This document shows, in pieces, positions 5,140 through 51,292 of a stretch of 64,000 bases of DNA. The stretch's first letter is position 1. Each line of letters begins with the position of its first letter. Source of the stretch: Malacoraja senta (taxonomy: Eukaryota); NCBI GenBank assembly GCA_038087875.1, contig CM075989.1:13394001-13458000 (forward strand), written 5' to 3'. The notes below the pieces were generated by a model. That model did not search any database and was not told the DNA's origin. It saw only the letters and a program-made list of their open reading frames with translations. The position numbers and the translations under genes were made by a program.

Positions 5140-6310
5140 AGCACAGAAACAGCTGATCATCCTTTTGGCCCAACTCGCCCGTGCTGACCATAAATACCTA
5201 ACTACGCTAGTCTAATTTGTCTGCATTAAGATATCTACTGCTTTCCTATCCAAATGCCTTTCAAACCTTGTAATTCAATGTGCTTTCATCGACCCATCTG
5301 GCAGCTTCTTCACAATGTATTATCCACATCTGCCACTGCTCCAAACTTTCCAGTTGATCTATGTCCCATTGTATCTCTAGATAATATTTGCGATCTATGA
5401 CTCCAACAATTTTTTTATAATCTGCAAACTTGCTAATCAGACCCGCTATATTTCCATCCAAGTCATTTATAGATATTATTACAAAAGGTCTAACCACCAA
5501 TGTGTAGGAAAGAACTGCAGGTGCTGGTTTAAATCGAAGATATAGACACAAAATGGTGGAGTAACCCAGCGGGACAGGCAGCATCTCTGGAGAGAAGGAA
5601 TGGGTAACCAGTCTGAAGAAGGGTCTCGACCCAAAATGTCACCCATTCCTTCCCTCCAGAGATGCTGCCTGTCCCGCTGAGTTACTCCAGCATTTTGTGT
5701 CTATCTTTGGTCTAACCACCTGAGAGTCAGAGAAACACCCATCCATCATCACCCTATGCCTCCTATCGCTAAGCCTACTTTGTATTCAGTTTGCTCAGAC
5801 CCTTTGTGCTTTAACCACCAATGTGTAGACAGACCTGCCTACCGTGCGGGACTGTCAAAAGACTCGCTGAGATCCATGGAAACCACATCATTCATCAATC
5901 TTCCTCGTCATCTAAAAAAACTCAGATTTATGAGACATGATTGCCTCTGCACAAAAACCTACCTTAATTAGTCCCTACCTTTAAAGTGACACTTCCTTCT
6001 TCCTGATACAGAGATGCTCACATTTTAAATACACGGAATCTTCAACAACTTTCCAGCCACTGAGGCAAGGCTCGCCAATCTGTAGTTTCTAGGCTTGACC
6101 CTTCTTCACTTCGTGAACAAAGGGACTATGTCAACTATCCGACCATCTTCTAGTCCCTATCCATTACGGCCAAAAATGCAAAAATCTGCATTAGAGCCCC
6201 ACCAACCTCCAGGCTTGTTTTCCTTAGCATTTCAAGATAGATCATTACAGACCATAGGGATTTATTGACCCTGATGCTGTCTAATATTTTTAACACTTCC
6301 TCCTTTCTAA
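5140..6310 (-). mobile_element. CR1-like LINE fragments (decayed)
   Basis: INDLDGNIAGLISKFAD motif and typical CR1 RT remnants; interrupted by the PLE hairpin. Confidence 0.7.
5499..5708. mobile_element. Palindromic PLE-derived short element
   Basis: About 75-bp inverted arms (GACACAAAATG...GGAATGGGT / ACCCATTCC...TTTTGTGTC) with a decayed hammerhead core at 5613-5640. Flanked by a GGTCTAACCACC direct repeat (5487-5498, 5709-5720). Confidence 0.8.
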
Positions 6311-8349: not shown

Positions 8350-8693
8350 AAACTCCTTCGATGGAGTCGAGGGGGGAGGTAAAGGGACAGGTGTTGCATC
8401 TCCTGCAGTTGCAGGGGAAAGTACCTGGGGAGGGGTGGTTTGGGTGGGAAGGGACGAGTTGACCAGGGAGTTTCGGAGGGAACGGTCTCTGCGGAAAGCA
8501 GAAAGGGGTGGAAATGTGAAGATGTTGCCAGTAGTGGAATCCCATTGGAGGTGATGAAAATGTTGGAGGATTATATGCTGTATGCGACGGCTGATGGGGT
8601 GGAAGGTGAGGACAGGGGAGACTCTGTCGTTACGAATGGAAGGGGGAGGGAGAGTAAGAGCGTGCTGCGGGATTTCGAGGAGACCCTAGTGAG
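8350..8693 (-). mobile_element. Penelope-like internal fragment
   Basis: PSPGTFPCNCRRCNTCPFTSPLDSIEG; homologous to 23200-23455. Confidence 0.75.
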
Positions 8694-10412: not shown

Positions 10413-11129
10413 CTGCAATGAAAATAAATGTTATTATTATACTAATTCTGCAGTTCCTAGAACTAAACAACTTTACAATCCCGAACAATAATGGCTGCAT
10501 AAAAGAACAAATTAAAAACAAAGACAATAAAAACTGCAAATCAGTGTCTGCAGATGAAAGGCAGATCAATACTTTCAATGTGACCTTTCATCAGACCTGT
10601 AAAGGCAGAGTAGCAATGGTCTTTGATAGATATTAAAGACAGTTGCAAAGTACTCTGGAATGGTCTGTTGTTCTTCCAGCCCTCCATTTATGTTGGTCAA
10701 CTGGAAGGTCTATCCTAATTTGCCAACTAAAACATTCATCTGGCAGATCGGATTAAACTTACTCTGCATCTTTAGCATATTGTATTTCTTACAGATTGTC
10801 ATGAACTTACACGATGAAAACAGGTACTAGTAGTTCTGCTAGCATGCAATAATAGTATTCCTCCGAAACCTTGTGTCATAGAAAACCACAATATTAAAAA
10901 AAATTGTGGCAATGGGGTGAAAGGTGGTTAGCAGATAGCGTTTCAGACTCTTAATAACAAAGTCATTTTCCCAGCAAGATTAAACAAATTGCAGGTCTTT
11001 GCACTAGTAATCAGTATATTTTTGTAACTGCAAGCTAAAATTATTGCATGTTACACTGCCTAACAGAGAATCATTGCACAAATGTCAATAGAAGCAAAGT
11101 GACTTTTCAGTAGTTCTCTAATACCCAAC

Positions 11130-11335
11130 TGAAAATGCAGTAACTCAGTGGGTCAGGCAGCATCTCTAGAGAAAATGGATACATGACGTTTTGGGTCAGA
11201 ACCCTTTCTTCAGATGAAGGGTCCCGATCTGAAACTTCACTTATCTATTTTCTTCAAATGCTGCCTGTTCCACTAAGTTACTTCAGCATTTTGTGTCCAT
11301 CTCTAGCATAAACCAGCATCTGCAGTTCCTTTTTT
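11130..11335. mobile_element. Palindromic PLE-derived short element (decayed)
   Basis: Same arm sequences, with two opposed decayed hammerhead cores at 11185-11240. Confidence 0.7.
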
Positions 11336-11400
11336 ATATAATTCCTATGAATATTATGGCAAAAGCTGAATGTTATTTCACAAAATGGAACAGTAAGTAC

Positions 11401-19750: not shown

Positions 19751-20750
19751 ATAATAAGATTTCCCGGAGGATGCGAGAACCATCTATCTCCACCACGAGT
19801 ACACCATAAATACGGACAAATTCCCTACGCTCGAAGGCTCTGAAAGTGGCTGCAGATGTTTTAATACATTTGGTGGGTGGGGAGAGAGAGACGGGGACAT
19901 TAGAACTCCCCCCACCCCTCAATGTTTGACGTTTTCCAGGTGGGTTTAGTGAAGCTGTGGAGACAAAATTACATTGCAGACCGGTACCACGTCCAAAAGA
20001 ACGTGCGATTAAAAAAAATGTCCAATTTAATGTAAAATTGATTTAGTGACACGAAGTAAAAGTTCGCAAGTGTTTTTGTGACTAAAAGGCTGTTATCGGG
20101 AATTCCGCAGGGCCCGGTGTTTGGTCTGTTGCTTTTGGTGGTACATATTATTGTCGATGGGGATCTAAACGTTAGGGGGCTGATAAGGACATTTACAGAT
20201 GATACAAACATTGGTGAGAAATAAAACTATGATCGATTTGAGAAAAGGTATCTTGATTTCAGAGACGTGTAAGATAAAGCAGGGGAATATAACATGAATG
20301 GGAGGCTATTGAGTGATGTAAAGGAACAGAAGGATGTGGGGCTACACACCAATACCTTGCTCAGTGCTCTAATTCATTATGATGCTGTTTACTGAATGTG
20401 GTCTTTCCGTCCATACCTTCACAGACTGCCAGTAACCTGATGCAAACACTGATCATTCAGCAAACCATTGCAGTGGCTTGGCTGTCGATGGGGGGCTGGC
20501 ATTGGACTGGATGGGGAGAGTGAATTGCCTGCTCAATGTTGAAATGGGGGATGATCTTCACAGTGAGTGTGGGCAATGATGTGAACAGACAGCAGCTGGT
20601 CTGTATGTTGGAGGTCATGGAAGTTGCTATCTTCCCAATTTCTGTTTGACTACACAGCTCACTCAAGCCCAGAGCCTTTACTATGGTAACATGCTCAACA
20701 GTAGTACTATAATGACATCTCTGGGCTGGGGAGATAAGAGAGACTTTCGG

Positions 20751-20924
20751 GTAGACACAAAATGCTGGAGAAACTCAGCGGGTGAGGCAGCATCTATGGA
20801 GAGAAGGAATTGGAGACATCGCCAATTCCTTCTCTCCATAGATGCTGCCTCACCTGCTGAGTTTCTCCAACATTTTGTGTCCACCTTCAATTTTACCAGC
20901 ATCTGTAGTTCTTTCTTAAACAGG
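20751..20924. mobile_element. Palindromic PLE-derived short element
   Basis: Near-perfect hairpin 20751-20885, flanked by GAGACTTT(C/A)GGGT (20740-20752, 20925-20937). The hammerhead core is missing from the loop. Confidence 0.8.
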
Positions 20925-21169
20925 GAGACTTTAGGGTCCGGCTACTCAGTCCACCTAGGCAGCAGCCATTGCCAAGTCCCAGCAACAGCCGGCACTTGCC
21001 TTGCTGATGAATATGCAGCACCGAGCTCCACACCTTACCGCAAAGTGAATGCATTGCCTTGTCCCAGCCTGTTTTCCCAGACAGCCTCTCCACACCTAGT
21101 AAAGCGTAATTTATTGCAGGATTTGCCCCAGTTCCTAGCACAGGCCATGCTCTGACAGCAGCACTGTCA

Positions 21170-21598
21170 AGGGGCTGTCCCACTTGGGCGACCTAATTGG
21201 CGATTTTAGAAGAGTTTTTAAAAAATGACATGTTGAAGACCTCCTTCGACTATGTTAAAGACTAGCTACAACTAACTTTGGGAAAATTGGAGAGTGAAAA
21301 CGACCTCCTTCGACCTCCCTTCGACTATGATGAAGACTATCTTCGACTACCTTCGACTAACATGCCGACCTACTATGATCTACTACGACGATTTTTTCCA
21401 TGGCAACCTTTTTTTACTCGCGGGCATTTTTTTACATATTTCAAAAACTCCGTGACCTAGCTGAGGCCTCGAGTACATGGAGACCACTCTCGGGCATGAA
21501 GGAGAGTTACGAAGACCTCCTACGACCTTGTGTCGACCGTGCTGCGAGTATGAGTCGAGGGTGAACTCGCGGATTAGGTCGCCCAAGTGGGACAGGCC
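21170..21598. mobile_element. MITE with CTGTCCCACT terminal core (Harbinger-like)
   Basis: GGCTGTCCCACTTGGGCGACCTAAT / ATTAGGTCGCCCAAGTGGGACAGGCC inverted termini; internal TTCGAC repeats. Confidence 0.75.
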
Positions 21599-22024
21599 AG
21601 TAATCCATCTCTCTCTGTAGAAACAAGGAATTGCAGATGCTGGTTTACCAAAAAAGAGTAATTCAGTGGGCCAGAAATGCTGCCTAATCTGCTGAGTTAC
21701 TGCAGCACTTTGTGTCTTTTCCTCGCTACACAATGTTGCAATGACCTCCTTCAGCACTGATTCCATTAGCACCTGCATTCCAGGGAACAAATCCTGGGTA
21801 CCAGTGGATACACTGATCATTATCTATAGCAGCACATTTCATTTAGGTGGTTAAAAAAGCCATGAAGGATGCTATCCTCAATTAATCAAGGCAGTGTACT
21901 AGAACTAGGGAGTTATACTAGAAATCTATACAATACCAGTTAGACCACATCTTGAGAACTGCACAGTTCTAATAATCACATTACAATACATGTATAATTT
22001 CACTGAAAAGAATGACAATCGTAA

Positions 22025-22312: not shown

Positions 22313-22540
22313 ACACACTAAGGATAGCTGGAATAAACTTGTATTTCCAAATTAGTGTATTACATTTAGTGCTCACAATGTGGCCTGCTGTTGGGGAAGA
22401 AACCACACAGATTAGATGACAATTTTGCTGAAAACCTATTAATTTCACTGGACATGATGAGTTTCCCCTTGCCTGCAACCTTAAATCTTCACCCACTCCT
22501 ACTATTCCAATGAAGCCCAAGATAGGCTTGAAGAACGTAG

Positions 22541-23455
22541 TGTGTAGGAAGGAACTGCAAATGTTGGTTTAAACTGAAGATAGACACAAAAAGCTGGAGT
22601 AACTCAGCGGGACAGGCAGCATCTCTGGAGAGAAAGAATGGGTGACGTTTCAGGTCGAGACCCTTCTTCAGACTGGATAGGGATAAGGGAAATGAGAGAA
22701 AAAGATGATGATGTGAAGAGATAAATAACAATTAATAAAAAAGATGCAAAAAAGTAACGATAAAGAAAACAGGCCATTGTTAGCTGTTTGTAGGGTGGAA
22801 AAGATAAGCTAGTGTGACTTGGGTGGGGGAGGAATAGAGAGGGAATGCCGGGGCTACCTGAAGTTAGAGAAATCAATATTCATACCACAGGGCTGTAAGC
22901 TGCCCAAGCAAAATTTGAGATGCTGTTCCTCCAATTTGCGTTTAACTCTGATAATGGAGGAGACCGAGGACAGAAAGGTCTGTGTAGGAATGGGAAGAAG
23001 AATTAAAGTGTCCGGCAACCGGGAGATCAGGTAAGTTCAGGCGGGCTGAGCGAAGGTGTTCTGCACAATGACCGCCCAGTCTACGTTTGGTCTCGCCGAT
23101 GTATAAGAGTCCACATCTTTAACAATGGATACAGTAGATGAGGTTGGAGGAAGTGCAAGTAAATCTCTGCCTAACCTGAAAGGACTGTCGGAGTCCCTGG
23201 AAGAGGGAGGAGATATAACGTCAGGTGTTGCATCTTCTGCAGTTGCAGGGGAAGGTACCAGGGGAGGGTGTGGTTTGGGTGGGAAGGGATGAGTTAACCA
23301 GGGATTTGCTGAGGTTCTCTGTGTAAGGCGGAAAGGGGTGGAGATGGGAAAATGTGGCTAGTGGTGGGATCCCATTGAAGGTGGTGAAAATTTTGGAGGA
23401 TTATGTGTTGTATGCGACAGCTGATGGGATGGAAGGTAAGCACTAGGGGGACTCT
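22541..23455 (-). mobile_element. Penelope-like retroelement 3' fragment (degenerate GIY-YIG endonuclease plus terminal repeat)
   Basis: The minus strand reads PGTFPCNCRRCNT ... NLIYCIHC*RCGLLYIGETKRRLG..AEHLRS ... EEQHLKFCLGSLQPCGMNIDFSNFR* (stop at 22854-22856). This is a Cys-rich linker plus the bipartite GIY-YIG motif typical of PLEs. Confidence 0.85.
22644..22671 (-). ncRNA. Minimal type-I hammerhead ribozyme core in the PLE terminal repeat
   Basis: CTGAAGA-A-GGGTCTCGACCT-GAAAC-GTC: CUGANGA box, stem II GGGT/ACCT, GAAA box, GUC cleavage triplet. Confidence 0.72.
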
Positions 23456-25930: not shown

Positions 25931-26295
25931 ATCCATGTCAATACCCTACCCCCAATATCATGTGTTCTAATTTTGCTCACTAATCTCTTGTGTGGGACCT
26001 CGTCAAAGGCTTTTTGAAAGTCCAGATACACCACATCCACTGGCTCTCCCTTATCCATTCTACTTGATACATCCTCAAAAAATTCCAGAAGATTAATCAA
26101 GCATGATTTCCCATTCATAAATCCATGCTGACTTTGACCGATCCTGTCACTGCTTTCCAAATGCGCTGCTATAACATCTTTGACAATCGTCTCAAGCAAC
26201 TTCCCCGCTACCGATGTACGGCTAACCGGTTTATAATTCCCCATTTTTTTTCTCTCCCTCCTTTCTTAAAAAGTGGGGTTACATTGGCTCTCCTC

Positions 26296-28657
26296 ATTTA
26301 ATAATTTGAGACGATTTTTTAACATAATGTATTCACATAAAGTGGAAAAGGAAGACTTATCAGTTATATCTTTGGATGCAGAGAAAGTATTTGATCTGGT
26401 AGAGTGGCAGTATTTATACTTAGTACTCCAAAAATTTAATATGGGAGATAATTTTATGAGATGTGTGAAATTATTATATGATAAACCAATGGCAAGAATA
26501 TTAACTAATAATATGTTGTCTCCAAAATTCCAATTATCACGAGGCAATAGACAGGGATGTGTTTTATCACCCCTGCTATTTGCCCTTATGATAGAGCCTT
26601 TGGCTGAAAGGATAAGAACACATCCGAATATTCAGGGATATAATACTAATGACTCTAATAACAAAATTTCATTATATGCAGATGATATACTTTTATATAT
26701 TAGAAATTCAGAAATGAGTATCCCGAATTTACTAAACGTAATAGAGGAATTTGGCTCTTTTTCTGGATATAGAATAAATTGGAATAAAAGTGAAATTATG
26801 TCATTACAGCCCCAGAAAGCGAATCATCTATTAAAATTTCCATTTAAAATTGCAACAGAAAAATTTAAATATTTAGGTATTCAAGTTACTAAAAGATATA
26901 AATCATTATTTAATGCTAATTTTAATCCTTTATTAAATAAATTGAACGCTCTGATTAAATTTTGGAAAACGCTCCCACTATCATTAATTGGCAGAATAAA
27001 TGCTATAAAAATGATAGTTCTACCACAAATAATATATTTATTTCAATCCATACCAATATATATACCAAAATATATATTTTTTAAACTAGACTCTAATATT
27101 ACTAATTTTATTTGGGACTACAAAGCACATAGGATTAAAAGAAATCATCTGTGTAAACCTAAAGATGTAGGGGGACTTGCACTGCCTAATTTTTTATATT
27201 ATTATTGGGCAGTGCATATTAAGAATATCATTTATTGGTTGGACTGCCCTTCTCAACAGATGGAATGGATAAGAATGGAGAAAGAGGACTGTTTTCCGTA
27301 CAATTTAGCAACGATCCTCTTTTCCCCGATAAAGTTGAATAATACATTATATAAGAAGAATCCAATTATACATAATATAATTCGAATTTGGAAACAAATA
27401 AAATTAACTTTAAAATTAAGGAACTTATCATCATTAACACCAATAGTGAATAATCCGGTATTTAAACCATCTTTTATGGATAAAACATAGACAATGGGAA
27501 AGATTGGGAATTAAAAAGGTGGGGGACATGTATGAAATGGGAAATTTATTATCATTTCAACAATTAAAATCAAAATTTAATCTGAATAATAACCAATACT
27601 TTAAATATTTACAGATATGTGACTTTATAAAAAAATATATACCAAGACTACAGAGCATAATGATAGACCCACTGGAAGAAGCAATGAATATTAAGGCAGA
27701 CTCACAAAAATTAATATCATATTTATATAATAGTATTCTTAATAGAGAATTGCCATCAACAGAGGCAATTAGAGAAGACTGGGAAAAAGAATTAATGGCA
27801 AAAAATTCTAAAGAAACATGGGAGAGGTATTTGATATATATACATAAATGTTCGATTAACGCTAGACATAATTTAATTCAATTTAAAATATTACATAGAT
27901 TATATTATTCAAAAGTTAGGTTGAATAAATTTTATTCAAATATTTCTACCATCTGTGATAAATGTCTTTCTCAAAATGCCAATATCACACATTCTTTCGT
28001 TTCTTGCACAAAACTTCATGGATTTTGGTGTGATATATTTGATATATTCACTAGTTTATTTAAGATAAAAATTGAACCTAATATGGAAATGATTATCTTC
28101 GGAGTAATAGGAGATGGAAACAAATTAAATATATCCCAAATTTCATTTTTAAATTATGGTTTAATAACAGCAAAAAAAACTCATACTTAAATTTTGGAAA
28201 AATGCTACTATACCAACACTCAAAATGTGGATTGGTAATATGTTGGAAACTGCCCACTTGGAAGAAATGAGACTCCTCCTAATAGATAAACAAGACCAAT
28301 TCTTAACGAGTTGGTCTCCATTTATTGACCTTGTGGATTCATGTGGTGCAATAGTATCGTAAAATTAAAAAATTCTGGGTTTGGGCGAAAAATGATTAAG
28401 AATATAAAAAAGCATCGACTTGTGGCAAGGGAGAATCTCCTTTCTGCTTCACTTTCTTACTTATTTCTTTTCTTTACCTCACACTCACTAGACTTTCCTT
28501 TACTCTTCACTACTTCTTTCTTTCTCATTTCTTTCTAAAAAAAATTTTAAAAAAGGAAGTTGTACAAAGAATGTTTTAATAATTCTGGGAACCTGTAAAA
28601 AGGTACCATCAAAATGTAATGTACTTCTAATAAATAAAATATAAAAAAAAACAAAAA
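26296..28657 (+). mobile_element. L1/Tx1-like LINE, 5'-truncated ORF2 (RT plus CCHC knuckle)
   Basis: [28 protein letters not shown] and CDKCLSQNANITHSFVSC motifs; frameshifts near 27490 and 28175; AATAAA plus A-tail; 15-bp TSD ACATTGGCTCTCCTC (26281-26295, 28658-28672). Confidence 0.92.
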
Positions 28658-29092: not shown

Positions 29093-29384
29093 TGATATAA
29101 ATGGCCATAGTCTGACAGAATTAAGTCTGAACTGTGGGACAGCAAGGAACTAGTGTGTAAGATAGAGAAATAAACTTGTGGCAGTGGCAGCAAATGCTTA
29201 TGTGCACCGAAGGTGAGTTGTTACTTTGAATTCAATAAAATAGACACATATTCCTTTGGTGACCCATGTGATTCGGTACATTCTGAAATTAGCTATAGTC
29301 TTCAGCCATTGGGAATTGAGTAAATATAAACGGCAGCCTAATTTACACCCCATAAGTGTTGGGTAGAGCTGTTGGGAGCTCATA

Positions 29385-30989
29385 CAGTGGCTTGCAAAAG
29401 TTTTCATACCCCTTGAACGTTTCCACATTTTGTCATGTTACAACCACAAACGTAAATGTATTTTATTGTGATTTTATGTGATAGACCAACACAAAGTGGT
29501 GCATAATTGTGAAGTGGAAGGAAAATGATACATCGTTTTCAAATTTTTTTACAAATAAAAAACTGAAAAGTGTCGCGTGCAAAGGTATTCAGCCCCCCTG
29601 AGTCAATACTTTGTAGAACCACCTTTCGCTGCAATTACAGCTGCAAGTCTTTTGGGGTATGTCTCTACCAGCTTTGCAAATCTAGAGACTGAAATTTGTG
29701 CCCATTCTTCTTTGCAAAATAGCTCAAGCTCAGTCAGATTGGATTGAGAGCGTCTGTGAACAGCAATTTTCAAGTCTTGCCAGAGATTCTCAATTGGATT
29801 TAGGTCTGGACTTTGACTGGGCCATTCTAACACATGAATATGCTTTGATCTAAACCATTCCATTGTAGCTCTGGCTGTATGTTTAGGGTCGTTGTCCTGC
29901 TGGAAGGTGAACCTCCGCCCCAGTCTCAAGTCTTTTGCAGACTAAACAGGTTTTCTTCCAAGATTGCCCTGTATTTGGCTCCATCCATCTTCCCATCAAC
30001 TCTGACCAGCTTCCCAGTCCCTGCTGAAGAAAAGCATCCCCACAGCATGATGCTGCCACCACCATGTTTCACAGTGGGGATGGTGTGTTCAGGGTGATGT
30101 GCAGTGTTAGGTTTCCGCCACACATAGCATTTTGCATTTAGGCCCAAAACTTCAATTTTGGTCTCATCTGACCAGAGCACCTTCCTCCACATGTTTGCTG
30201 TGTCCCCCACATGGCTTGTGGCAAACTGCAAACGGGACTTCTTATGGCTTTTTTTCAACAATGGCTTTCTCCTTGCCACTCTTCCATAAAGGCCCGATTT
30301 GTGGAGTGCACGACTAATGGACAGATTCTCCCACCTGAGCTGTGGATCTCTGCAGCTCCTCCAGAGTTACCATGGGCCTCTTGGCTGCTTCTCTGATCAA
30401 TGCTCTCCTTGCCCGACCTGTCAGTTTAGGTGGATGGCCATGTCTTGGTAGGTTTGCAGTTGTGCCATACTCTTTCCATTTTCGGATGATGGATTGAACA
30501 GTGCTCCGTGAGATGTTCAAAGCTTGGGATTTTTTTAATAACCTAACCTTGCTTTAAACTTCTCCACAACTTTATCCCTGACCTGTCTGGTGTGTTCCTT
30601 GGGCTTTGTGAAGCTGTTTGTTCACTAATGTTCTCTAACAAAGCTCCGAGGCCTTCACAGAACAGCTGTATTTATACTGAGAATAGATTACACACAAGTG
30701 GACTCTATTTTCTAATTAGGTGACTTCTGAAGGCAATTGGTTGCACTGGATTTTATTTAGGGGTATCAGAGTAAAGGGGGCTGAATACTTTTGCACGCCA
30801 CACTTTTCAGTTTTTTATTTGTAAAAAAATGTGAAAACCCATGTATCATTTTCCTTCCACTTCACAATTATGCGCCACTTTGTGTTGGTCTATCACATAA
30901 AATCCCAATAAAATACATTTACGTTTGTGGTTGTAACGTGACAAAATGTGGAAAAGTTCAAGGGGTATGAATACTTTTGCAAGCCACTG
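29385..30989 (-). mobile_element. Full-length Tc1/mariner DNA transposon (DD34E, IR/DR type), transposase frameshifted
   Basis: TA|CAGTGGCTTGCAAAAG...CTTTTGCAAGCCACTG|TA; about 215-bp TIRs with inner and outer direct repeats; WSDET, QQDNDPKH and SPDLNPIENLW with 34 residues between D and E. Confidence 0.95.
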
Positions 30990-30994
30990 TATGT

Positions 30995-31750
30995 CTGAGA
31001 AGGAGAACCTATCAATCTCTGCTTTAAAAATACCCAGAGACTTGGCCTCCACAGCTATCTGTGGCAATGAATTCCACATATTCACCACCCTGTGACTAAA
31101 GAAATTCCTCATCATCATCTTTCTAAAGGTACATCCTTTTATTCTGAGACTGTGCCCTCTGGTCCTAGACTCTCCCACTAGTGGAAACATTCTCCCCACA
31201 TCCACTCCATCTAGGCCTTTCATTATTTGATAAGCTTCAATGTGAACCCTCTCATCCTTCTAAACTCCAGCAAGTATAGGCCCCGAGCTGTCAAACGCTC
31301 ATCCTAAGTTAACCAATCATCCCCGGGATCATTCTCATAAACCTCCTCTGGACCCTATCCAACTCTAACACATCCCTCCTCAGATGTAGGGCGCAAGAAC
31401 TGCTCACAATACTCCAAATGTGATCTGACCATTGCCTTCTAGAGCCTCCCTGCTTTCATATTCTAATTTTCTCAGCAAATTAACAGCAAATTAATCATTT
31501 GGAAATACTGCACCAGCTCTGCCAAGTCCCTTTGCATGTCCGATATCTGAATCCTCTCCCCATTTAGAAAATAGTCTATGCCTTTATTCCTACTATGAAA
31601 GTGCATGACAGCACATTTTGCTTTGTGAATTCCATCTGCCACTTCTTTGCCCACTCTTCCGATCTGTCCACATCCTTCTTACAGACTCCCTGCTTCCTCT
31701 ACACTAATTTCCCTCGCACCAACCTTAGTATCAACTGCAAACTTAGCTAC
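30995..31750 (-). mobile_element. CR1-like LINE 3' fragment
   Basis: KGLDGVDVGRMFPLVGESRTRGHSLRIKG...WNSLP. An opposite-orientation CR1 fragment follows at about 31810-32310. Confidence 0.8.
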
Positions 31751-33342: not shown

Positions 33343-35070
33343 CAGGCATGAGATTGATCTGCGGATTCCCGCGAATGCGCATCTCTACGGCTAGCGCTCA
33401 GCTCCGCACATGTAGAGTAGCGATTACATTGTTAAAATATGAGAACTGTTTCATTTGTAAAACAAAAGCATTCAAGAGTCTGTATGTCATAGACACTACA
33501 ATATTCTTTTTTTTTTTTTATGTGTTATTGTAAGGTATGAAAACAAAATCACAGTATAAATTAAGGGTAAACAAGCAAGGAAATGGGGTCATTTCAAAGT
33601 ATAATTATCAAAAAAGTATTCTAAAAATCCTGTGTAAAGCATACTTCTCTCTAATTAGAAGAAACAAGTAAGGAACAATATGTTACAAGTAAGTAGCAAT
33701 GTTACAAAATTTTGAGATTTAAAAAATAAAGTCTGCAATTTATCCCATCAGATAAAGCATAAAAAGAAGTTTAATTTGACACCTAATTCACTTTCATATC
33801 TTCGGTATTAAAAAAGTTATGGCCATTTTCATACTCGGAAATTAGCATCTTGCTCCCTATTGCTTTCCATTGACTTAACACAAAAGCTGTGATCGAGGAC
33901 AGTTAAAAGCCCATAACTTTCTTAAAAATTAAGAGAACTGAAAGAAATTTTCAGTTATTATAGATTGAAGCATTCGGAAACAAATATGAAACAATCTTAC
34001 TTAGAAGACATGAAATTAAAGCATATAATTAGTTAGTTACCTAATTGTAGCTAATTACAAAATTAAATTACTAGATCTAAACATCTATCAATTTCTTAAG
34101 AATAGATTAACATTTTTAAATAGCCTAAGTGTCCAAATAACATTCACACAAGAATTCACAATATAACATAATTTTTAAATCTCATTGTCATGAATTTATA
34201 GGCCAAATGGAAGGAATTGAATGTTTAATACCTGTAAATTAATGGGCATTTAAATCATCTTGTGAGTGAGGATTTCTGGAACGCGATCAATTGGAACGTT
34301 GATTTGCGGTGAATTTAACCCCGTATTGGCATGAAACATTCTGCCGTTAGTTCAGGGAATAAAATCACCGTTTCGCATGAAAAAATGTGAATTAAAGGCT
34401 TCTTAAGAAGCACTTTTATACATTTAAATAACCACTTTCGTTTACCTGTCCCGTGTGTGAAATCCGTCCCCGCTATCGGCGTTAACGGCTTCAGGAGCTG
34501 ATTTTAAAACAACTCCAGCGCTGACATTGTCGATTTAATAAAAATAAAAAATTCACAAAACGCCCCTAGGAACGATTTTTCAGCAAACGCTTGTACTCCA
34601 ACGAAATATAATTCAGGACAAGGTAGGAGAAACCCGCGTTTTAAGCCCTCCCTCCCCCCCCCTTAAAGGCGCCAAAATCGCGCACACGGCCAGTGACAGA
34701 ATTGCAGCGTGACTGAAGGTAAGTTTTGTAACATACCTAAAGTAAGTGTAGGTGTATGTGTAATATAAAATATTTTCAATATGACTTAAGTGCAAACAAG
34801 CAAGGAGTTGGTGTCATTTTAAGGTATGATTATCACACATTTTCTGTGTAAATTAAGAAGTGACAAGCAAGGAAAATGTGTTATTTTAAGGTACAATTAA
34901 AAAAAACAGTCTAAATTAAGGGTAAACAGGCAAGAAAACAGTATCATTTCAAGGTACAATTATCAAAAATGTTCTGCATAAAGGGGGCGGCCTTGGAACC
35001 CTACCAGAGGACAATGCCCCCTAGACCCCCATCTCTCTTCCTCTTTTTTCATTTTTTTCCCTCGTGCCTG
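33343..35070. mobile_element. Non-autonomous DNA transposon (CAGG termini, hAT-like) inserted in a CR1/SINE tail
   Basis: TIR CAGGCAYGAG; flanking CACATT duplication (33337-33342, 35071-35076); internal roughly 60-bp imperfect repeats. Confidence 0.6.
33694..34739. mobile_element. Nested MITE with TAG termini (hAT/hATm-like)
   Basis: TAGCAATGTTACAAAA ... TTTTGTAACATACCTA, flanked by an AAGTAAG(T) duplication. Confidence 0.65.
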
Positions 35071-38195: not shown

Positions 38196-38280
38196 ACACT
38201 AGAAAGATTATGGTACACTATGAAAAATAACTTTGTAAATAAAGTATTTATTATTAATGGGTACAATGAGCTATCATTTG

Positions 38281-38570
38281 TGTAGGAAGGAACTGAAGAT
38301 GCTGGTTTAAACTGAAGATAGACACAAAAAGCTGGAGTAACTCACCGGGCCAGGCAGCATCTCTAGAGAGAAGCAATGGATGATGTTTCGGGTTACTTTT
38401 TTGCATATCTTTCATTCGTTGCCTTTGTCTACATCATTGTCTATATCTCTCGTTTCCCTTTTCCCTAACTAGTTGGAAGGAGGGTCACTAACCCGAAACA
38501 GCACCCATTCCTTCTCTCCAGAGATGCTGCCTGTCCGGCTGAGTTACCCCAGCTTTTTGTGTCTATCCAC
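38281..38570. mobile_element. Palindromic PLE-derived short element
   Basis: Inverted arms; flanking direct repeat GAGCTATCATTTGTGT (38268-38283, 38571-38586). Confidence 0.8.
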
Positions 38571-39262
38571 GAGCTATCATTTGTGTTCAACTGGTAGCTC
38601 ATTTTTATGGAATCTAAAAATGTGTTGTTCTGTGGTGAGATCTTAGACTGTGTGCAACTCTGCATATGTAGCTTTTAATTGTTCCCTTTGAAGCAAAAAT
38701 ACAACAAAATGTGTTTTCTTGTTATTTAATCAATCTATATACAAATACAATCAAGCCAGACACAAGTACAAAAGTTAGTGCAAAGAGAAAAGTACCAGAG
38801 CGCAGAATATAGTGTTATAACGATACGGTTGCAGAGAAAATGCAGACAAATAAATGTGCACCAAGGTAAGTTGGGAGATCAGGACTACACACAGCTTCTG
38901 AGGAGTCTGTTCTGGAGGAAGAAGGTGTACCTAAATCTGGTAGTATGTGCTTTTAACCTATTGTATCTTCTGCCCATTGGGAGAAGAAGGAATGATCATG
39001 GTGTAAATGGTCCTTGATCATGTGCTGCTTTCCCATGGCAGAGAAGGGAAGTGTAGATGGAGTTGATGGGGGTGGCTGGTTTGTATGGTGGATTGGACAA
39101 CTCTCAGGAATTTCTTGCGTTGCTTTTAATGGTGTCTAATCCAACAAAGATGGGACTGAATAGTTTAATAACAGTGTATTTATTAAGGATAGATCCCTTC
39201 TAAGAATATGAAGCTTAATTAAGGAATGACCAATGTTTTATGTGTTCTATCTTATTCTACAG

Positions 39263-40060: not shown

Positions 40061-40411
40061 AGGGCCTGTCCCACTTAGGCGATTTTTTAGGCGACTGCCG
40101 ACGACTAGGCTATCGCCACACGGTCGCCGGGGACTCATGGTCGTGAGTAGTCTCCTCAGTCGCCCAAAGAGTCGTAGCGTTTTTCTGGTCGCAGCTGGAT
40201 TTTGAAATGTTCAAAACTTTTCGGCGTCAGTCGGCGACCGTGGGCTTGTCGTAGCTTGTCTTCTCCTGAAGTAGGTGCTGTCGTAGGTTGTCGCCGGGAT
40301 GGCAGAGGTTGTCGTCAGGTGACGTAGGTTGTCGCCGGTGCTGACTTCGGTGAATTCCATTGTCGTATTCGCCGGCAGTCGCATCAAAAATCTCCTAGTG
40401 GGACAGGCCCT
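40061..40411. mobile_element. MITE with CTGTCCCACT terminal core (Harbinger-like)
   Basis: AGGGCCTGTCCCACT...AGTGGGACAGGCCCT with a 3-bp TAT duplication; internal GTCG repeats. Confidence 0.78.
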
Positions 40412-41764: not shown

Positions 41765-44292
41765 GTTAGAAAGCAACTGCTGCTCATTCTTTAAGATGTA
41801 TGACTTACCGAAATAATATGAGATTTGTCAAAAGTGAAAGTGTTTTGTCAAAAGTGCTATGTAGCCTGCAAAGACACAAGCAAAACATTTCACCAGCAAA
41901 ATGAACTCTTCTGCAATTTCAATTTTAATTAGATTTTATTTTTTAATATAAGAAACGCTCAACAATAGTTCTCACTTCAACAATGCAGAGAGGTTTTACA
42001 AAGGTATTTGTGCTGTAATGCCCATAATGCTATCTCCTTCATATTTCCTTCATCAATCCTTTCCTTCACTACTGATGCATCCTTAAGAAGTTAAGGATGT
42101 AATTGCTTCCACAATCAAGGTTAGCTGATGGAAAGCAATATATTTTCTTTGAGAAGGTACCTCAGCTTTCACAAACCAGCAAAATCTTGTATGTTTGCGC
42201 TGTCTCTGTAAACGTTCTATAAACCACCATTCCAACATCATTTCTGTCCAATATGTTAGGCTAATCTCAGCTAATACTAACTTTCATTGTTGCAAATATT
42301 ATAAGAAATGAATCGTAGATTCCTAAAAATCTGTTTCTACAGCATAAAAAATGGATTATGGCCCACCTCAACCATGCCACCTGTGATACCTATCTACGCT
42401 AATCCCATTTGCCTGTGTTGTGGTTCAAAACCATAACTTTGCCCTCAATATTAGCAAAACTGAAGACTTGGTTTTTGACCTAAGGATGCGAAGGGGTGAA
42501 CAAAATCCTGTCCTCATCAATGGATGCCTGTGGAAATGGTCAACAGCTTCAAGTTCTTAAGCATCACTATCATCTGAAACGCAACCTGATCACACTGATT
42601 CAGTGATCACATCAGTGTATTTACTTTCTTTGCCATCTGAGAAGATTTGGCACTATTTTTATGTCTTTATTAAGTACCAAATGTCTATCTAATTGGTATT
42701 GTGATAAATGTCAATGGCACAACTCTATTTGTAATGCTCAATGTTCTGGGTGTGTGTGAGAACTATAACTAATAGTATGCATGGAAGAGAGAAGATTGAA
42801 AATCAAAAACACTGCAGATGCTGGAAATGTAAAATAAACCAAAATGCAATAATAGATAGTGGGTCAAGCAGCATCTGTGTAAAGTGAAAGTTATTATTTC
42901 AGGCCTTTCATAAGAAAAGAGAAGATTGTTTATTCACCAATTGTTATGGTTTCCATATTTTATCAATTACCTTCTTTGTGGATGTGCATTGAATGATATG
43001 TTATATTTTCATCAAGAATGAAATACTTTGAAAGGCAGGAATATAACACTTTATAAACATTTTTGCCTTATTTGGTGCTTTCTTCAGTAGCCTGGGTAGA
43101 TTGAGTCTGTAGAAGGGTCTCGACCCAAAACGTCACTAATTCCTTCTCTCCAGAGATGCTGCCTCTCCCGCTGAGTTTTACTCCAGTTTTTTGTGTCTAG
43201 GTTGGTAGATTATCAGATCGAACCTATGTTTGCTAATCTACAGCAGCATGTGTGATGTTGAAGTATATTATAGATAGAGTTATAGAAAATATTCTTCATC
43301 TCCAGGCACAATATTCTTCATCTCCAGGCACATCATCCAATGTGATGTAAAATAATATAATTTCCATTAATTCTGTTAAAATTCTCAATGTTTTAATTAT
43401 CTTTCTCTTTGGCGTTTGCATTTGAACATTCTGCAATATTTTTGGTCATCTTAAAAGGGTAAAAATGACCAACCAAAGTAAACTGTGGTGAAACTTAACC
43501 AGAACGTTTGTGTAACTGTAAAACTCTCCTTAAAGTTACTAGCTCCCTGGGTTCATGCCATCTTCAACCATAAGCATTCAATTAAACATTGAAATCCCCA
43601 GGCACATCGGAATATTTTTGTATCAGTAATCAAATGAAACCCTGGCATGGTTTAGTGGGTAGGAATATGGTGGTGATGGTGAATGCTGTGTAGATGAAAA
43701 TAATGTTAATTATGTTATACTGAAACAGTCAAATACTAGGATTTTTGAAACAGGATAACTGGCTTCTTTTGTGCATATGGATAGAAAAGGTTAGGGGAAT
43801 ATAGACTAGGCACAGGCAAGTGCGACTAGCTCTGCTCGGCAACTTGGTCGCAGTGAACAAGTTGAGCCGAAGGGACTTTCGTGCTGTAGAGTTCTATGAG
43901 TTTAAGACTGTTTTGTTTCTAGGTTCATGGGTACCAATGCAGTAAGTTGCTTATCCTTCACAGGAAAGGCTGCCTGTGACAGTTGAAGTGCAAATGATCG
44001 TTCAAGACAGTGATGGGCTTACCATGCGCCTCTTGGTTTCAGTCAAAATGATGACAACTTGATGTACCTGCCTGTTGGTAGTGGGGTGAGATTGGCTGGA
44101 GGGTAGCTGGGATCTGCATTGAGGATGGGTTGCCTGAACTAGTGTTCTCCTGGAATTAGTGTGGTGGGGGGAAGGGTATATTTACTTAGGTAGCCCCTGA
44201 TGTGGGTGGCAATGTTGGGCTTGGTGATTCTTTGTTGCAATTTTATTTTAACGTCTTAGTTCGTATATACTGTATGTCCAGTTAATCCTTAA

Positions 44293-44587
44293 ACCCCTGT
44301 CCCACTTTCCCGAGTTACTCACGAATTCTCCCGAGTTTTCCCCTTGATTCAAACTCGGAGATGCCAGCCGTAGGTACTCTGGGCTATTTTTTTTACTCAT
44401 GGACATTTTTCAACATGCTGAAAAAACGTCCCAACTTACCTGATGCCCCGAGTACCTACGGCTAGCATTACGAGCCGCTACAAAATATCTACAGCCTCCT
44501 ACGGACTCCAACGGACATTCTCCGAGTTTGAATCAAGGGGAAAACTCGGGAGAATTTGTGAGTAACTCGGAAAAGTGGGACAGGGGC
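44293..44587. mobile_element. MITE with about 68-bp TIRs and CTGTCCCACT core
   Basis: CCCCTGTCCCACTTTCCCGAGTTACTCACGAATTCTCCCGAG...CTCGGAG inverted at both ends; TTAA on both flanks. Confidence 0.8.
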
Positions 44588-44728
44588 TTAACTTCTCTTC
44601 CTGCTTCCCAGTGGGTGCTTCTTAGCTTTTAATCAAAATAAGTGTTTAGTTCATAATGATATCTAAAGTGGAAATGTCGACTTTCAGAATTCAGGATTAT
44701 ATGAGAATTTTTTTTTTTCTTCTTTCAG

Positions 44729-45525: not shown

Positions 45526-46184
45526 GTAAGCATACAAGGAATCATTAATTTCTGGCGGGGTTGTGGGCAGGGGGTTGGAAGAGATTGGGGGAGGGGGGAA
45601 GATAATCATGACTGAGGCATTAGTTAGCACTGAATCTGTGGCATGGCTATTTGCATTATTTGCTTCTGGAAGAACCCCAATCGCTGGATCTTTCACCAGT
45701 GTTTTTGCTGCTACAAAGTTTAGAATATGATCACTCATTATATTCATCGCTGCATTTCTGTTATCTTCAGTACTGAGACTCTTTCATGGATCTATCCCAG
45801 ATATTCTTTCACCAAGTGATCTGTGTGGTGTTATCTGCACACTTTTGTTTTTAAAGTATTTGAGAACAAATGTCAACAGTTGTGATTTCCTTTGGAGACA
45901 TTTAGATTTATGTTCACTCATTTTGGGAGAGAGATGGAGAGATGTCATATATACTAACACAGTAAAACGACACGGGACACATCTCGTGGATATTGTAATC
46001 GATAGAGGAAAAGGAACAACCAAACATTTTGCTGCAATGTTGAAGTAATCCCATAAACATCTGAGTTCCAGTTGCCTAATGTCCTCTGAATCGACTGCTT
46101 AAAACAAAACAGAAGAGCCCAAAAAAACTAACTGCTAGAAGAACTCAGCAGGTCAGGCAGGATCTGTGGAGGGAAATGTACAGT

Positions 46185-46378
46185 CTGTTTTATGTTTTTT
46201 TAAACTTTTAAACATCAATAACATAAAATATACCATCAATCTGAACGTAACTTGTTTCATTTACATCACAGAACAATGGTAAGGTGGGCCAAAATGGTAG
46301 CGCTATCCTCTACTGTTTTTGCACAAATTGAGGTACAATCAAACAAACAAACATGATGAGAGTTTTAGTAATATAGAT
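46185..46378 (-). mobile_element. Helitron-like 5' end fragment
   Basis: Minus strand A|TCTATATTACTAAAACTCTCATCATGTTTGTTTG, similar to 8100-8190. It interrupts a decayed PLE palindrome (46130-46515). Confidence 0.55.
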
Positions 46379-47009
46379 CTCCCCGTCGCTCTCAGTCTAG
46401 AAGAAGTTTTGACCGAAACATCGATTGTCTATTTCCCTCCACAAGCACTGCCTGACCTGCTGAACCCCTCCAGCAGTTTTTAAAATTTTTGCTGCAGTTC
46501 CAGCACCTGTAGTCCCTTATCACCTTTGAGCAGAGACTAAATGTATTGTCTAACACATTTCCATATTAAATCTATGCTGGAATCTGATGTTTCTAATATG
46601 GTGCCCAAAGTGTATGGACCTATATCACACCCTCGCTTCAGTCCTCATGTTTTGTTCCATTGCCCATTTGGTCAGAGTGGGACCTGTGTCTAAATCTCTT
46701 GTTCATTCCTGAATCATTTAATAACTTCTAACAGCAACAGTTTTGTGTACAGTGCCATCCATAATGTTTGGGACAAAGACCCACCATTTATTTATTTGCC
46801 TCTGTACTCCACAATTTTAGATTTGCAATAGGAAAAAAAAATCACATGTGGTTAAAGTGCACATTGTCAGATTTTATTGAAGGTCATTTTTATACATTTT
46901 GGTTTCACCATGTGGAAATTACAGCTGTGTTTATACATAGTCCCCCCCATTTCAGGGCACCATAATGTTTGGGACACATGACTTCATATGGGACACATTG
47001 CTCTTTGTC

Positions 47010-47370
47010 AGAGACCATATAACCATATAACAATTACAGCACGGAAACAGGCCATCTTGGCCCTTCTAGTCCGTGCCGAACACTTACTCTCACCTAGTCC
47101 CATCTACCTGCACACAGACCATAGCCCTCCATTCCTTTCCCGTCCATATACCTATCCAATTTTTTTTTAAATGATAAAATCGAACCTGCCTCCACCACTT
47201 CCACTGGAAGCTCATTCCACACAGCTACCACTCTCTGAGTAAAGAAGTTCTCCCTCATGTTACCCCTAAACCTTTGTCCCTTAATTCTCAAATCATGTCC
47301 TCTTGTTGAATCTTCCCTACTCTCAATGGAAAAAGCTTATCCACGTCAACTCTGTCTATCCCTATCCCTC
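47010..47370 (-). mobile_element. CR1-like 3' fragment nested in Tc1
   Basis: DRVDVDKLFPL...RIKGQRFRGNMRENFFTQRVVAVWNELP; (TTATATGG)-type tail. Confidence 0.8.
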
Positions 47371-47746
47371 TCAGCCAAATCTTAGGCTTACCAAAATCAA
47401 CTGTTTGGAACAAAGAGACCACTGGTGAGCTTACTAATCGCAAAGGGACTGACAGGCCAAGGAATATCTCCACAGCTGATGACAGAGTAATTCTCTCTAT
47501 AATGTAGAAAAACGCCGAAACACCTGTCTGGCAGATCAGAAACACACTTCAGGAGTCAGGTGTGGATTTGTCAATGACCACTGTCCACAGAAGACCCCAT
47601 GAACAGAAATACAGAGGCTACACTGCAAGATGCAAACCACTGGTTAGTTGGAAAAATAGGATGGCCTGAATGCCAAGAAGTACTTAAAAGAGCAACCTCA
47701 GATCTGGAAAAAGGCCTTGTGGACAGATGAGATGAAGATTAACTTA

Positions 47747-50672
47747 CAGTGCATTCAGAAAGTATTCAGACCCCTTAACTTTTTCCACATTTTCTTACAT
47801 TACAGCCTTATTCTAAAATGGATGAAATTCTTTTTTTTTATCATCAATCTACACAGAATACTCCAGAATGAAGAAGCGAAAACAGGTGTTTAGAAATTTT
47901 TGCAAAGTAATTAAAAATAAATAACTGAAATATCACATGTACATAAGTATTCAGACCATTTACTCAGTACTTTGTTGAGGCACCTTTGGCAGCGATTACA
48001 GCTTCTTGGGTATGATAATACAAGCTTGGCACACCTGTATTTGGGTAATTTATCCCATTCTTCTCTGCAGATCCTCTCAAGCTCTCAGGTTGGATGGGGA
48101 GCGTCGATGCACATCTATTTTCAGGTCCCTCCAGAGATGTTCGATTGGGTTCAAGTCCAGGCTCTGGTTGGGCCACTCAAGGACATTCACAGATTTGTCA
48201 CGAAGCCACTCCTGTGTTGTCTTGGCTGTGTGCTTAGGGCCGTTGTCCTGTTGGAAGGTGAACCTCCACCCCAGCCTGAGGTCCAGAATGCTCTGGAGCA
48301 GGTTTTCATCAAGGATCTCTCTGTACTTTGTTCCGTTCATCTTTCCCTCGATCCTGACTAGTCTCCCAGTTCCCGCCACTGAAAAACATCCCAACAGCAT
48401 GGTGCTGCCACCACCATGCTTCACCATAGGTATTGGCCAGGTGATGAGCGGTGCCTGGTTTCTTGGTTTCATCAGACCAGAGAATCTTGTTTCTCATCGT
48501 CTGAGAGTCCTTTAGGAGCCTTTTGGCAAACTCCAAGCGGGCTGTCATGTGCCTTTTTCTGACGAGTAGCTTCTGTCTGGCCACTCTACCATAAAGGCCT
48601 CATTGGTGGAGTGCTGCAGATATAGTTGTCCTTCTGGAAGGTTCTCCCATCTCCACAGAGGAACTCTGGAGCTCTGTCAGAGTGACCATCACGTTCTTGG
48701 TCACCTCCCTGACCAAGGCCCTTCTCCCCCGATTGCTCAGTTTGGCCGGGTAGCCAGCTCTATGAAGAGTCCTGGTGGGTGAAGAGTCCTGATGGTTCCA
48801 AAAGTTCTTCCATTTAAGAATGACGGAGGCCGCTGTGCTCATTGGGACCTGCAACGCTGCAGAAATTGTTTTATACCCTTCTCCAGATCTGTGACTCGAC
48901 ACAATCCTGTCTCGGAGGTCTACGGACAATTTCTTCGTCTTCATGGCTTAGTTTTTGCTCTGACATGCACTGTCAACTGTGGGACCTTATATACTGTAGA
49001 CAGATGTGTGCCTTTCCAAATCATGTCCAATCAATTTAATTTACCACTGGTGGACTCCAATCAAGTTATAGAAACATCTCGAGTAACCCATCGTTTAAAC
49101 CTTCAATCATAGATAAAGCATTTATACAATGGGAAAGAATGGGAATTAAAACGCTCGAAGATCTGTATGAATTAGAAAAATTACTATCATTCCAACAACT
49201 ACAACTGAAATATAATTTGAAAAATAATCAATATTTTAAATATATACAAATCTGTGACTATTTGAAAACACACACAAAAGATTATTATAATATGCCTTCC
49301 GACTTACTAGATGAAGCAATGAAGACAAAGGCGGAATCAGTTAATTTAATATCATACTTATATAATATCATCTTAAATATAGAAATACCCACAACAGATG
49401 GAATTAGAAGAGATTGGGAACAAGATCTAGGTATAAAAATTTCAAAAGAGAGTTGGGATAATCATTTATTACAGGTGCATAAATGCTCGATCAACGTACG
49501 ACATACGCTTATCCAATTTAAAACATTACATAGATTATATTATTCAAAAACCAAACTAAATAAAATCTTTCCTAACGTCTCACCAATCTGTGATAAATGT
49601 ATATGTCAAGAAGCTACCATAGCACATTCTTTTGTTTTTTGTACAAAAATCCAAAAATTCTGGTTTGAAATATTTGATATTTTTTCAAAATTAATCAAAA
49701 TAAAACTGGTACCAAAACCAGAATGGATTATTTTTGGAATATCGGAAGGTATTCCTGAATTAAACGTGTATCAGAAGAATTTACTCAATTATGGGCTAAT
49801 AATGGGAAAAAAGCTTATACTTAAATTCTGGAAAAATGCGCCCACACCAACAATAAAAATGTGGACATCAAATATGTTGGAAACATTACATCTGGAAGAG
49901 ATGAGATTCCTCCTAGTAGGTAAAGTAGATCAATTTCAAAAGACGTGGTCTACGTTTTTGGACCTATTACAAGCATGAGGTGCAATAGTAATTTAGAAAA
50001 ACAAATAAATAAATAAAAGGTATCTGGACCTGGTAATGGGAGGTAAAATAAAAACAGACTTGGTTGGTAGTTCCTTCTCTATGAAGTATGGTATAAGAGT
50101 TATAATAGAGCGATTGTTCCTTCTTTCTTTCTCTTTTTTTTTCTAGGGTCTATTTTCTAACTTTACTTCCTTCTCTAACCTCTTCTCTAAGGGGCTTTCT
50201 TTTCCCAACACTCTTTTGCACTTCACAACCTTTGCGCACTTTCTTCACTTTTCTTACTTCTTTCTTTTTCTTTCTTAAAGTTTAAAAAAATGAAGCGGTA
50301 CAAAAAATGTATTAATATATACGTGTTGTACATTACTGTAATCTACCGTACTTCTAAAAAATAAAAAAAATAAAAAAAAAAAAATAAAAAAAAAGAAACA
50401 TCTCGAGGATAATCAATGGAAACAGGATGAACCTAAGCTCAATTTTGAATGTCATCGCAAAGGGTCTGAATACTTATGTAAATGTGATATTTCAGTTATT
50501 TATTTTTAATTATTTTGCAAAAATTTCTAAACATGTTTTCGCTTCTTCATTCTAGGGTATTGTGTGTAGATTGATGATTTAAAAAAATGAATTTAATCCA
50601 TTTTAAAATAAGGCTGTAACGTAACAAAATGTGGAAAAAGTGAAGGGGTCCCAATACTTTTTGAATGCACTG
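47747..50672 (-). mobile_element. Tc1/mariner element (inner, DD34E) nested in the outer Tc1
   Basis: TA|CAGTGCATTCAGAAAGTATT...[50 protein letters not shown] and DLNPIEHLW motifs. Confidence 0.93.
49084..50393 (+). mobile_element. L1/Tx1-like LINE 3' fragment nested in the inner Tc1
   Basis: Uninterrupted ORF2 C-terminus 49085-49978 with CDKCICQEATIAHSFVFC; long A-tail; 14-bp TSD AGAAACATCTCGAG (49070-49083, 50394-50407). Confidence 0.93.
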
Positions 50673-51116: not shown

Positions 51117-51292
51117 GTAGACAAAAATGCTGGAGAAACTCAGCGGGTGAGGCAGCATCTATGGAGCGAAGGAATAGGTGATATTTCAGGTCCGTCACCT
51201 ATTCCTTCGCTCCATAGATTCTGCCTCACCAGCTGAGTTTCTCCAACATTTTTGTGTACCTTCGATTTTTCCAGCATCTGCAGTTCTTTCTT
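51117..51292. mobile_element. Palindromic PLE-derived short element inserted in a Tc1 copy
   Basis: Hairpin 51117-51262; TSD AAGCAT(A/T)AGCTAAAG (51102-51116, 51293-51307). The sister Tc1 copy near 54455-54470 has a single, empty site. Confidence 0.85.

Follow-up and report, generated by a model that had tools for sequence, protein, structure and literature searches.

Short hairpins built from two inverted copies of the terminal repeat of a Penelope-like element (PLE) recur in the window (the whole 64-kb stretch of DNA that was analyzed), and they raise the question of whether such hairpins move as units copied whole or are made anew at each insertion. The window is repeat-rich, with 40% G+C and with LINE, Tc1, and PLE fragments. 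A first-pass annotation had placed inverted-repeat hairpins of 170 to 290 bp at 5499, 20751, 38281, 51117, and 60865, and all five were present. Inverted arms of 53 to 79 nt with 87 to 94% complementarity were found at 5542/5704, 20750/20885, 38317/38567, 51114/51262, and 60863/61072, and the hairpins measured 173 to 289 bp. The DNA fold of 5499-5708 reached −75.2 kcal/mol (z score, −16.85), and none of 200 shuffles was equally good. Altogether, 22 segments homologous to the PLE-end arms were found in the 64 kb, resolving into seven hairpins, one collapsed pair (59640-59755), and single arms. The annotated figure of about 10 copies is a fair one in this light, but only five hairpins are flanked by target-site duplications (TSDs). 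A point absent from the annotation is that the two arms of a hairpin are unequal, one carrying a tail of 36 to 38 bp and the other lacking it.

We consider it likely that each hairpin is a single EN+ PLE insertion cut to the last 100 to 220 bases of the element, with the inverted half formed in the course of that event rather than copied from a master hairpin. A literature search, with subscription literature mostly outside its scope, found no publication on such hairpins in skates or sharks, and motif scans gave no matches in metagenome, genome, and viral contigs, collections which are not expected to contain a vertebrate repeat.

Parent element and its hammerhead

The hairpin repeat corresponds to the 3′ terminus of a PLE of Neptune/Nematis type. 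On the minus strand of 22541-23455, a 5′-truncated copy of the parent type, the repeat is continuous with a truncated frame holding a CX4CxxC cysteine linker and the GIY-YIG C terminus; the copy also contains the 3′ untranslated region, a minimal hammerhead, and the tail (22541-22578). Positions within the repeat are given as d, the number of bases counted from the PLE 3′ terminus, with d1 at 22541. The GIY-YIG piece carries a CCHH-type motif (two inner cysteines and the following histidine), is broken by stops and frameshifts, and was weakly recognized by Pfam (E, 0.1). Eight homologs of the nuclease piece were found among 254 candidates, two of which (P0006 and P0007) are long proteins with RVT_1 and GIY-YIG domains, and the closest homologs were named from skates (65 to 76% identity), which makes a skate the probable host. 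The piece matched P0007 at 39% over 136 aligned columns (E, 2e-23). The copies in the window end short of the reverse transcriptase (RT) core, which P0006 and P0007 link, as RVT_1, to the same GIY-YIG domain. The linker reads C-N-C-R-R-C-N-T-stop and aligns with the CX4CxxC of P0007, with a stop in place of the last cysteine; a CX2-5CxxC linker upstream of GIY-YIG is a feature of Neptune/Nematis elements (PMC8557442).

The minimal hammerhead of this copy has its core at 22671-22644, approximately 100 bases inside the end, and the motif predicts a cut after 22644, between d104 and d103. Our own descriptor detected four cores in the window, only one of which lies inside a TSD-flanked hairpin. 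Rfam reported no hammerhead at the gathering score across the window, nor at E values up to 10 on 22500-22800, and in single-strand folds the hammerhead was not the minimum-energy structure, with z scores near zero. The motif resembles the minimal hammerheads of metazoan PLEs in its large helix II, the extra base before it, the short helix I, and the palindromic 15.2-16.2 positions (PMC4209133). Unlike those hammerheads, it is known here as a motif only, with a core that is decayed or missing in most hairpins.

Other traces of PLEs lie nearby. A second internal fragment (8369-8625) is 83% alike to 23203-23455 and lacks the terminal repeat, and decayed PLE-end fragments of older subfamilies occupy 21618-21717, 42811-42890, and 62225-62347. 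The public skate gene models P0001, P0002, and P0005 link the PLE nuclease piece to domains of other kinds (DUF4518, a region annotated as receptor-transporting protein, and a LINE RT piece); these models are probably annotation chimeras or exonized fragments.

Arm anatomy and hairpin centers

In both arms of the hairpins, the RNA 3′ ends point outwards. The tail is confined to one arm in all five TSD-flanked hairpins, so that one arm starts from d1 and the other from d36 to d41, and the inner ends fall at d103 to d139 in 11 of the 12 arms of six hairpins. In the 5499 hairpin, the tailed arm (5501-5605, minus strand) spans d1 to d103 and stops where the hammerhead is predicted to cut. Tolerating one substitution would move this end to d106; d103 is favored because base 22677 is T in nearly all contig depth. 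The tail-less arm (5605-5708, plus strand) spans approximately d36 to d139 and includes a decayed minimal hammerhead core (5613-5640), in which the GAAA box reads AAAA and which escaped the descriptor scan.

The other hairpins vary on this plan. The hairpin at 20737-20937, from a second subfamily, has a tail-less arm of approximately d39 to d106/108 and a tailed arm of d1 to d104/108, and at its center lies the ACGT palindrome that belongs to the hammerhead core. At 38268-38586, the tailed arm covers d1 to d115 and the tail-less arm d39 to d218. The hairpin at 51102-51307 lies within a remnant of a Tc1 DDE open reading frame (DDE_3; E, 1.8e-05, under the curated cutoff), with a tail-less arm of approximately d39 to d116, a tailed arm of d1 to d107, and a blunt center. 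At 60851-61122, the tail-less arm runs from d39 to at least d135, and 15 bp at the inner end of the tailed arm (d1 to d131) are tandemly duplicated. Among the older pairs, that at 11120-11345 belongs to another subfamily, with a tailed arm to approximately d130 and a tail-less arm of approximately d49 to d132; that at 46115-46520 has approximately 200 bp between its arms; and the arms of the collapsed pair at 59640-59755, from an older subfamily, are joined via a 5-nt overlap. A single tail-less arm (43095-43211, plus strand) spans d41 to d134, with an 8-bp flanking repeat matched by 39 of 3,000 random pairs and an additional G at its 5′ terminus, and another tail-less arm (59790-60073; d41 to d135) runs into the upstream sequence of another subfamily and a short internal inversion.

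In 5499, 38281, 51117, and 60865, each arm has sequence that is missing from the other (the tail in one and inner sequence in the other). Simple fold-back (snap-back) of a cDNA is excluded by the private sequence in each arm of these four hairpins. The tail-less arm extends further inward in all four asymmetric hairpins, and two more hairpins are near-symmetric. Within a hairpin, the two arms are of one subfamily and have some variants in common that set them apart from other hairpins; for example, d100 is T in both arms of 20751, and both arms of 51117 have A at d100 and C at d91. Such sharing is expected if a single source RNA gave rise to both arms. However, a non-CpG change at d54 is common to the tailed arms of 20751 and 51117 and absent from their tail-less arms, which counts against construction at insertion.

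At the hairpin centers, the two arms overlap by 0 to 4 bases. Seven centers were compared within the window, with the collapsed 59640 pair included and 46130 left out (arms 200 bp apart), and none of the 21 pairwise comparisons exceeded 23/41. The arm-junction comparison suggested with the annotation, in which shared junctions imply replication as a unit and unique junctions imply inversion at insertion, thus revealed no shared junction within the window and points to inversion at insertion. The center of 20751 could be derived from a 51117-like center by an 11-base deletion.

Target-site duplications and empty sites

Flanking repeats were ranked by a score of our own, devised after the repeats had been seen, with 3,000 random position pairs as the control. 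The 5499 hairpin is bracketed by an exact 12-bp repeat (5487-5498 and 5709-5720, both on the plus strand; 12/12 identical), which 1 of the 3,000 random pairs equaled. Repeats at the 38281 hairpin (38268-38283/38571-38586) were identical at 16/16 positions, with no random pair as good; those at 51117 (51102-51116/51293-51307) matched at 14/15, with 1 as good; and those at 20751 (20737-20752/20922-20937) matched at 14/16, with 4 as good. The first-pass annotation had assigned a 12- to 16-bp direct repeat to each hairpin; four stand far above chance, while the fifth, at 60865 (60851-60861/61112-61122), is weaker, with 10/11 matches and 39 random pairs as good. All 42 mixed pairings of left and right flanks scored 7 or less, and the five true pairs scored 8 to 16. 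The older hairpins 11132 and 46130 showed no flanking repeat, with 939 and 3,000 of the 3,000 random pairs, respectively, as good.

By BLAST, both flanks of the 51117 hairpin align to a sister Tc1 copy and overlap there on one 15-mer at 54455-54469; a MAFFT alignment of the Tc1 pair put the gap in the wrong place. The empty site that had been annotated for this hairpin is therefore present in the sister copy, but it is paralogous and not orthologous. No paralogous empty site was found within the window for 20751, 38281, 60865, 11132, or 43104. The host of the 5499 hairpin is an old LINE RT frame on the minus strand that reads through a single copy of the duplicated 12-mer, its codons being common to the frames to the left and right (...SDSQ-VVR and VVR-PFVIISINDLD...SKFAD). 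The left flank matched the RT part of P0005 (E, 1e-05) and the right flank gave no match to P0005, so that confirmation by an RT protein concerns the left flank only; Pfam found nothing in the six hairpin-flank frames searched.

Some duplications resemble the element itself. The target duplication overlaps the last 4 to 5 tail bases at 38279-38283, where the last 5 bases of the duplication are also d1 to d5, and at 51293-51297. The right duplication of the 5499 hairpin resembles the inner part of the tail, which leaves the arm end uncertain by 1 to 3 bases. Short target-RNA pairing may help priming, in contrast to the nonhomologous priming reported in vitro. In addition, an exact 17-mer at 5491-5507, in which the end of the left duplication is followed by the opening bases of the tailed arm, has its only other occurrence in the window at 5812-5828, approximately 320 bp downstream within the host LINE remnant. 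The copy at 5812-5828 may reflect patching from a template or a second priming event that aborted.

Ends and joints in contigs from related organisms

Contigs of four public runs (three organism codes and three studies) were aligned to 22491-23090 at 80% likeness, giving at least 178,920 to 337,412 aligned contigs per run. Run X1 possibly has the same source as the window and is not independent, and contig depth was not taken as copy number. Among the 24 of 3,211 loose-end entries listed, all four runs showed loose ends at 22541 (at least 1,066 to 1,560 contigs per run) and at 22577 (at least 949 to 1,593), and the flanks beyond both were long and unrelated (agreement, 0.34 to 0.39). This pair of outer ends, separated by 36 bases, therefore characterizes the family as a whole. 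An inner end at 22673 or 22674, just 5′ of the hammerhead, was likewise among the entries listed, with at least 738 to 1,311 contigs per run; the loose sequence past it agreed at 0.30 to 0.33 and was AT-rich after the first letters. Ends at d133 to d134 with unrelated flanks were thus among the commonest listed in all four runs. At 22593, 22631, and 22675, the loose sequence is shared, and these ends resemble points where subfamilies diverge; the cut site at 22643 was not among the six loose-end places listed per run.

Joints between inner positions gave a mixed picture. The three best-supported inner opposite-strand joints among the 15 of 992 listed (22631 with 22672, 22673, and 22675) had, on average, single-copy depth per contig, for example, a depth of 791 over 18 contigs in X1. 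Some joints with fixed letters lay far above one copy: among the 12 of 797 listed, 22674/22598 in X3 had a depth of 1,563, 22674/22644 in X4 had 727, and 22675/22643 in X3 had 561, against 34 to 114 for the single contigs listed. Two of these three have a side at 22643 or 22644, and their strand was not given. They may represent shared centers, hot spots, or subfamily features, and they count against construction at insertion. Joints of 22541 with 22576 or 22577 and joints that go back were not counted as tandem units or hairpin centers, since an identical entry would result from a contig that bridges two copies through unique DNA.

Origin of the hairpins

The layout of the hairpins is mostly ordinary for PLEs, as insertions with an inverted pseudo-LTR (pLTR) plus a tail are already published (PMC3846280, PMC8557442, and PMC11167929). 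In rotifers, PLE insertions combine an inverted pLTR with TSDs of 8 to 10 bp and a one-sided tail of 31 bp (PMC3846280), and PLEs generally show an inverted 5′-truncated copy and a tail of 30 to 40 bp (PMC8557442, PMC8969392, and PMC2377424). The hairpins resemble such EN+ PLE insertions in their head-to-head 3′ ends, the tail on one end, a TSD of variable length, and an inverted junction marked by a palindrome or by a short overlap (PMC3846280, PMC8557442, and PMC2377424). They differ in that no open reading frame separates the arms, the insert is 170 to 290 bp, the density is high, and the TSDs are 11 to 16 bp. Together with the lack of matching centers among the seven, the published layout supports one of the two alternatives originally annotated, namely, heavily truncated PLE insertions with an inverted pseudo-LTR.

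The purified PLE protein of Anolis (Poseidon PAc) cuts and extends both target strands and starts reverse transcription at two sites that bound the tail (PMC11167929). A corresponding pathway would produce the hairpins observed here. The GIY-YIG nuclease would nick both target strands 11 to 16 bases apart, and PLE RNA would then be reverse transcribed with the two free 3′ target ends as primers, from the distal start site in one case, with the tail included, and from the proximal site in the other, with the tail omitted. Both cDNAs would end early and join in the middle through 0 to 4 bases of overlap. We infer the double priming and the joining ourselves, as joined inverted products do not appear in the available text of the in vitro study. 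Poseidon PAc also has a minimal hammerhead approximately 100 bases inside its end, and its linker is unlike the CX2-5CxxC linker of Neptune/Nematis type in the parent PLE here. By our approximate weighting, if the inverted half is made at insertion, then double priming from both target ends is the somewhat more probable route, antisense self-priming is a clearly less probable one, and other routes together would account for a small remainder.

In L1 twin priming, both target ends prime, and the two cDNAs, which copy different parts of the RNA, join by a short overlap. The double priming and the short-overlap joining proposed here are alike, whereas the arms here overlap by at least 65 bases.

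In the antisense self-priming model proposed in PMC3846280, the 3′ end of an antisense PLE RNA folds back on the molecule, RT copies as far as the tail, and the resulting hairpin integrates with loss of the tail from one arm. This model predicts the further-reaching tail-less arm found in four of four asymmetric hairpins, which double priming does not require, although four of four would occur with a chance of 1 in 16 in the absence of any bias. The model was argued from palindromes at inverted junctions (PMC3846280), and the center of 20751 is palindromic; yet the centers overlap by at most 4 bases and 51117 is blunt. An extra step would also be needed to trim exactly 36 to 38 bases, which two RT start sites explain directly (PMC11167929). 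Overall, we regard self-priming as rather unlikely.

Transcription and whole-unit copying of a nonautonomous, retrozyme- or SINE-like hairpin family by PLE enzymes, in some subfamilies at least, would fit the high density of seven to eight inverted pairs in 64 kb and the resemblance between 20751 and 51117, which are alike in layout, have nearby centers, and share the d54 variant of the tailed arm. The few high-depth joints, with strand not given, point the same way; moreover, pLTRs can mobilize sequence in trans (PMC3846280), and nonautonomous PLEs exist (PMC8557442). However, the seven centers do not match, and the depth per contig at the inner opposite-strand joints listed is on average that of a single copy. 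The four hammerhead cores in the window, one of them in a TSD-flanked hairpin, include no same-strand tandem. Both arms of 20751 also differ from those of 51117 at matching positions, so that arm-to-arm conversion would be needed, and copying as a unit appears improbable. Deletion of the interior of longer inverted-repeat PLE insertions at a later time appears similarly doubtful. Long insertions of this kind are common (PMC2377424), 59640-59755 looks collapsed via its 5-nt overlap while 46130 retains a 200-bp spacer, and short overlaps at the centers are also compatible with repair deletions; random deletions, however, would scatter the inner ends, which cluster at d103 to d139 in 11 of 12 arms, and ends at d133 to d134 on unrelated flanks are among the commonest listed in the four runs. 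A MITE moved by a DNA transposase would share the short length, the inverted-repeat shape, and the flanking direct repeats, but the TSDs vary in sequence and in length (11 to 16 bp, not fixed), the ends are unequal by 36 to 38 bp, and the repeated sequence is a PLE 3′ terminus, which makes this origin extremely improbable.

If built at insertion, the hairpins are dead-end products whose existence needs no ribozyme step. Annotators should label them neither MITEs nor retrozymes. For the PLE insertion mechanism, the value of these loci lies in the many minimal insertions whose two ends and center can be read in less than 300 bp. A genome-wide tally could separate double priming from antisense self-priming and test the hammerhead cut or the transcription start as the template end in vivo.

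Assessment of retrozyme-like processing and possible runoff products

The annotation's other alternative, that of discrete mobile units processed by a ribozyme in the manner of retrozymes, was not supported: no hairpin had same-strand tandem hammerheads, and no two of the seven centers compared matched. Non-LTR retrozymes are tandem, head-to-tail units, each with a hammerhead, that are processed to unit-length linear or circular RNAs (PMC7229834; bioRxiv 10.64898/2026.07.22.740005). The hairpins resemble them in being short, noncoding, pLTR derived, and hammerhead related, with TSDs of more than 4 bp, but they are single inverted pairs. The hammerhead core is absent from 20751 and 51117 and mutated at 5499. 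Because the GUC site is central in the hairpin, inside a long stem, cleavage would halve the unit and not release it. In Schistosoma, opposite-strand pairs of minimal hammerheads lie 100 to 700 bp apart (PMC4209133).

Tentatively, the short arms may be runoff products, in which RT starts internally, approximately 100 to 135 bases from the RNA 5′ end, and falls off there. Two 5′ ends would be involved, a capped transcription start at d133 to d134 and the hammerhead cut at d103. For the start, the single arm at 43104 begins at d134 and has an additional G between that point and its 8-bp duplication; in runs X2 and X3, the loose sequence at 22674 opens with C on the cDNA strand. The context of d133 to d134 is one that we take to fit the initiator consensus. 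For the cut, the tailed arm of 5499 ends at d103, and 3 of the 12 joints listed have a side at 22643 or 22644, whereas the tailed arms of 51117 and 20751 retain all or part of the GUC and were thus not copied from cut RNA. The d133 to d134 position follows a pyrimidine tract ending in AG and could alternatively reflect a splice acceptor or simply divergence among subfamilies. In Drosophila virilis, helix I marks the end of an intron (PMC4209133), and the transcript starts inside the upstream pLTR (PMC2377424). The hammerhead of Poseidon PAc is dispensable in vitro, and no RNA reads were found to end at its cut (PMC11167929); here, some inner ends lie at or near the cut. If the runoff reading is true, these arms would form a very large fossil record, in these genomes, of ribozyme-cut PLE RNA reverse transcribed in vivo, and the excess of terminal stubs over coding parts would be explained.

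Other elements in the window

Several repeats in the window are of other kinds. Inverted-repeat elements at 44289-44591, 21172-21598, and 40061-40411 are MITE-like and unrelated to the PLE end, and the first two have related ends. Tc1-like copies or fragments lie at 46731-48756, 50459-51694, 54086-55222, and 29381-30999, with one frame matching DDE_3 (E, 1.8e-05). The LINE remnants at 26270-28356 and 49040-49990 are 72% alike, and a 406-codon open frame matches RVT_1 (E, 1.1e-26). Finally, an AT-rich repeat with a period of 63 to 67 bp occurs at 33520-33625 and 34770-34985, one copy lying 1.2 kb away.
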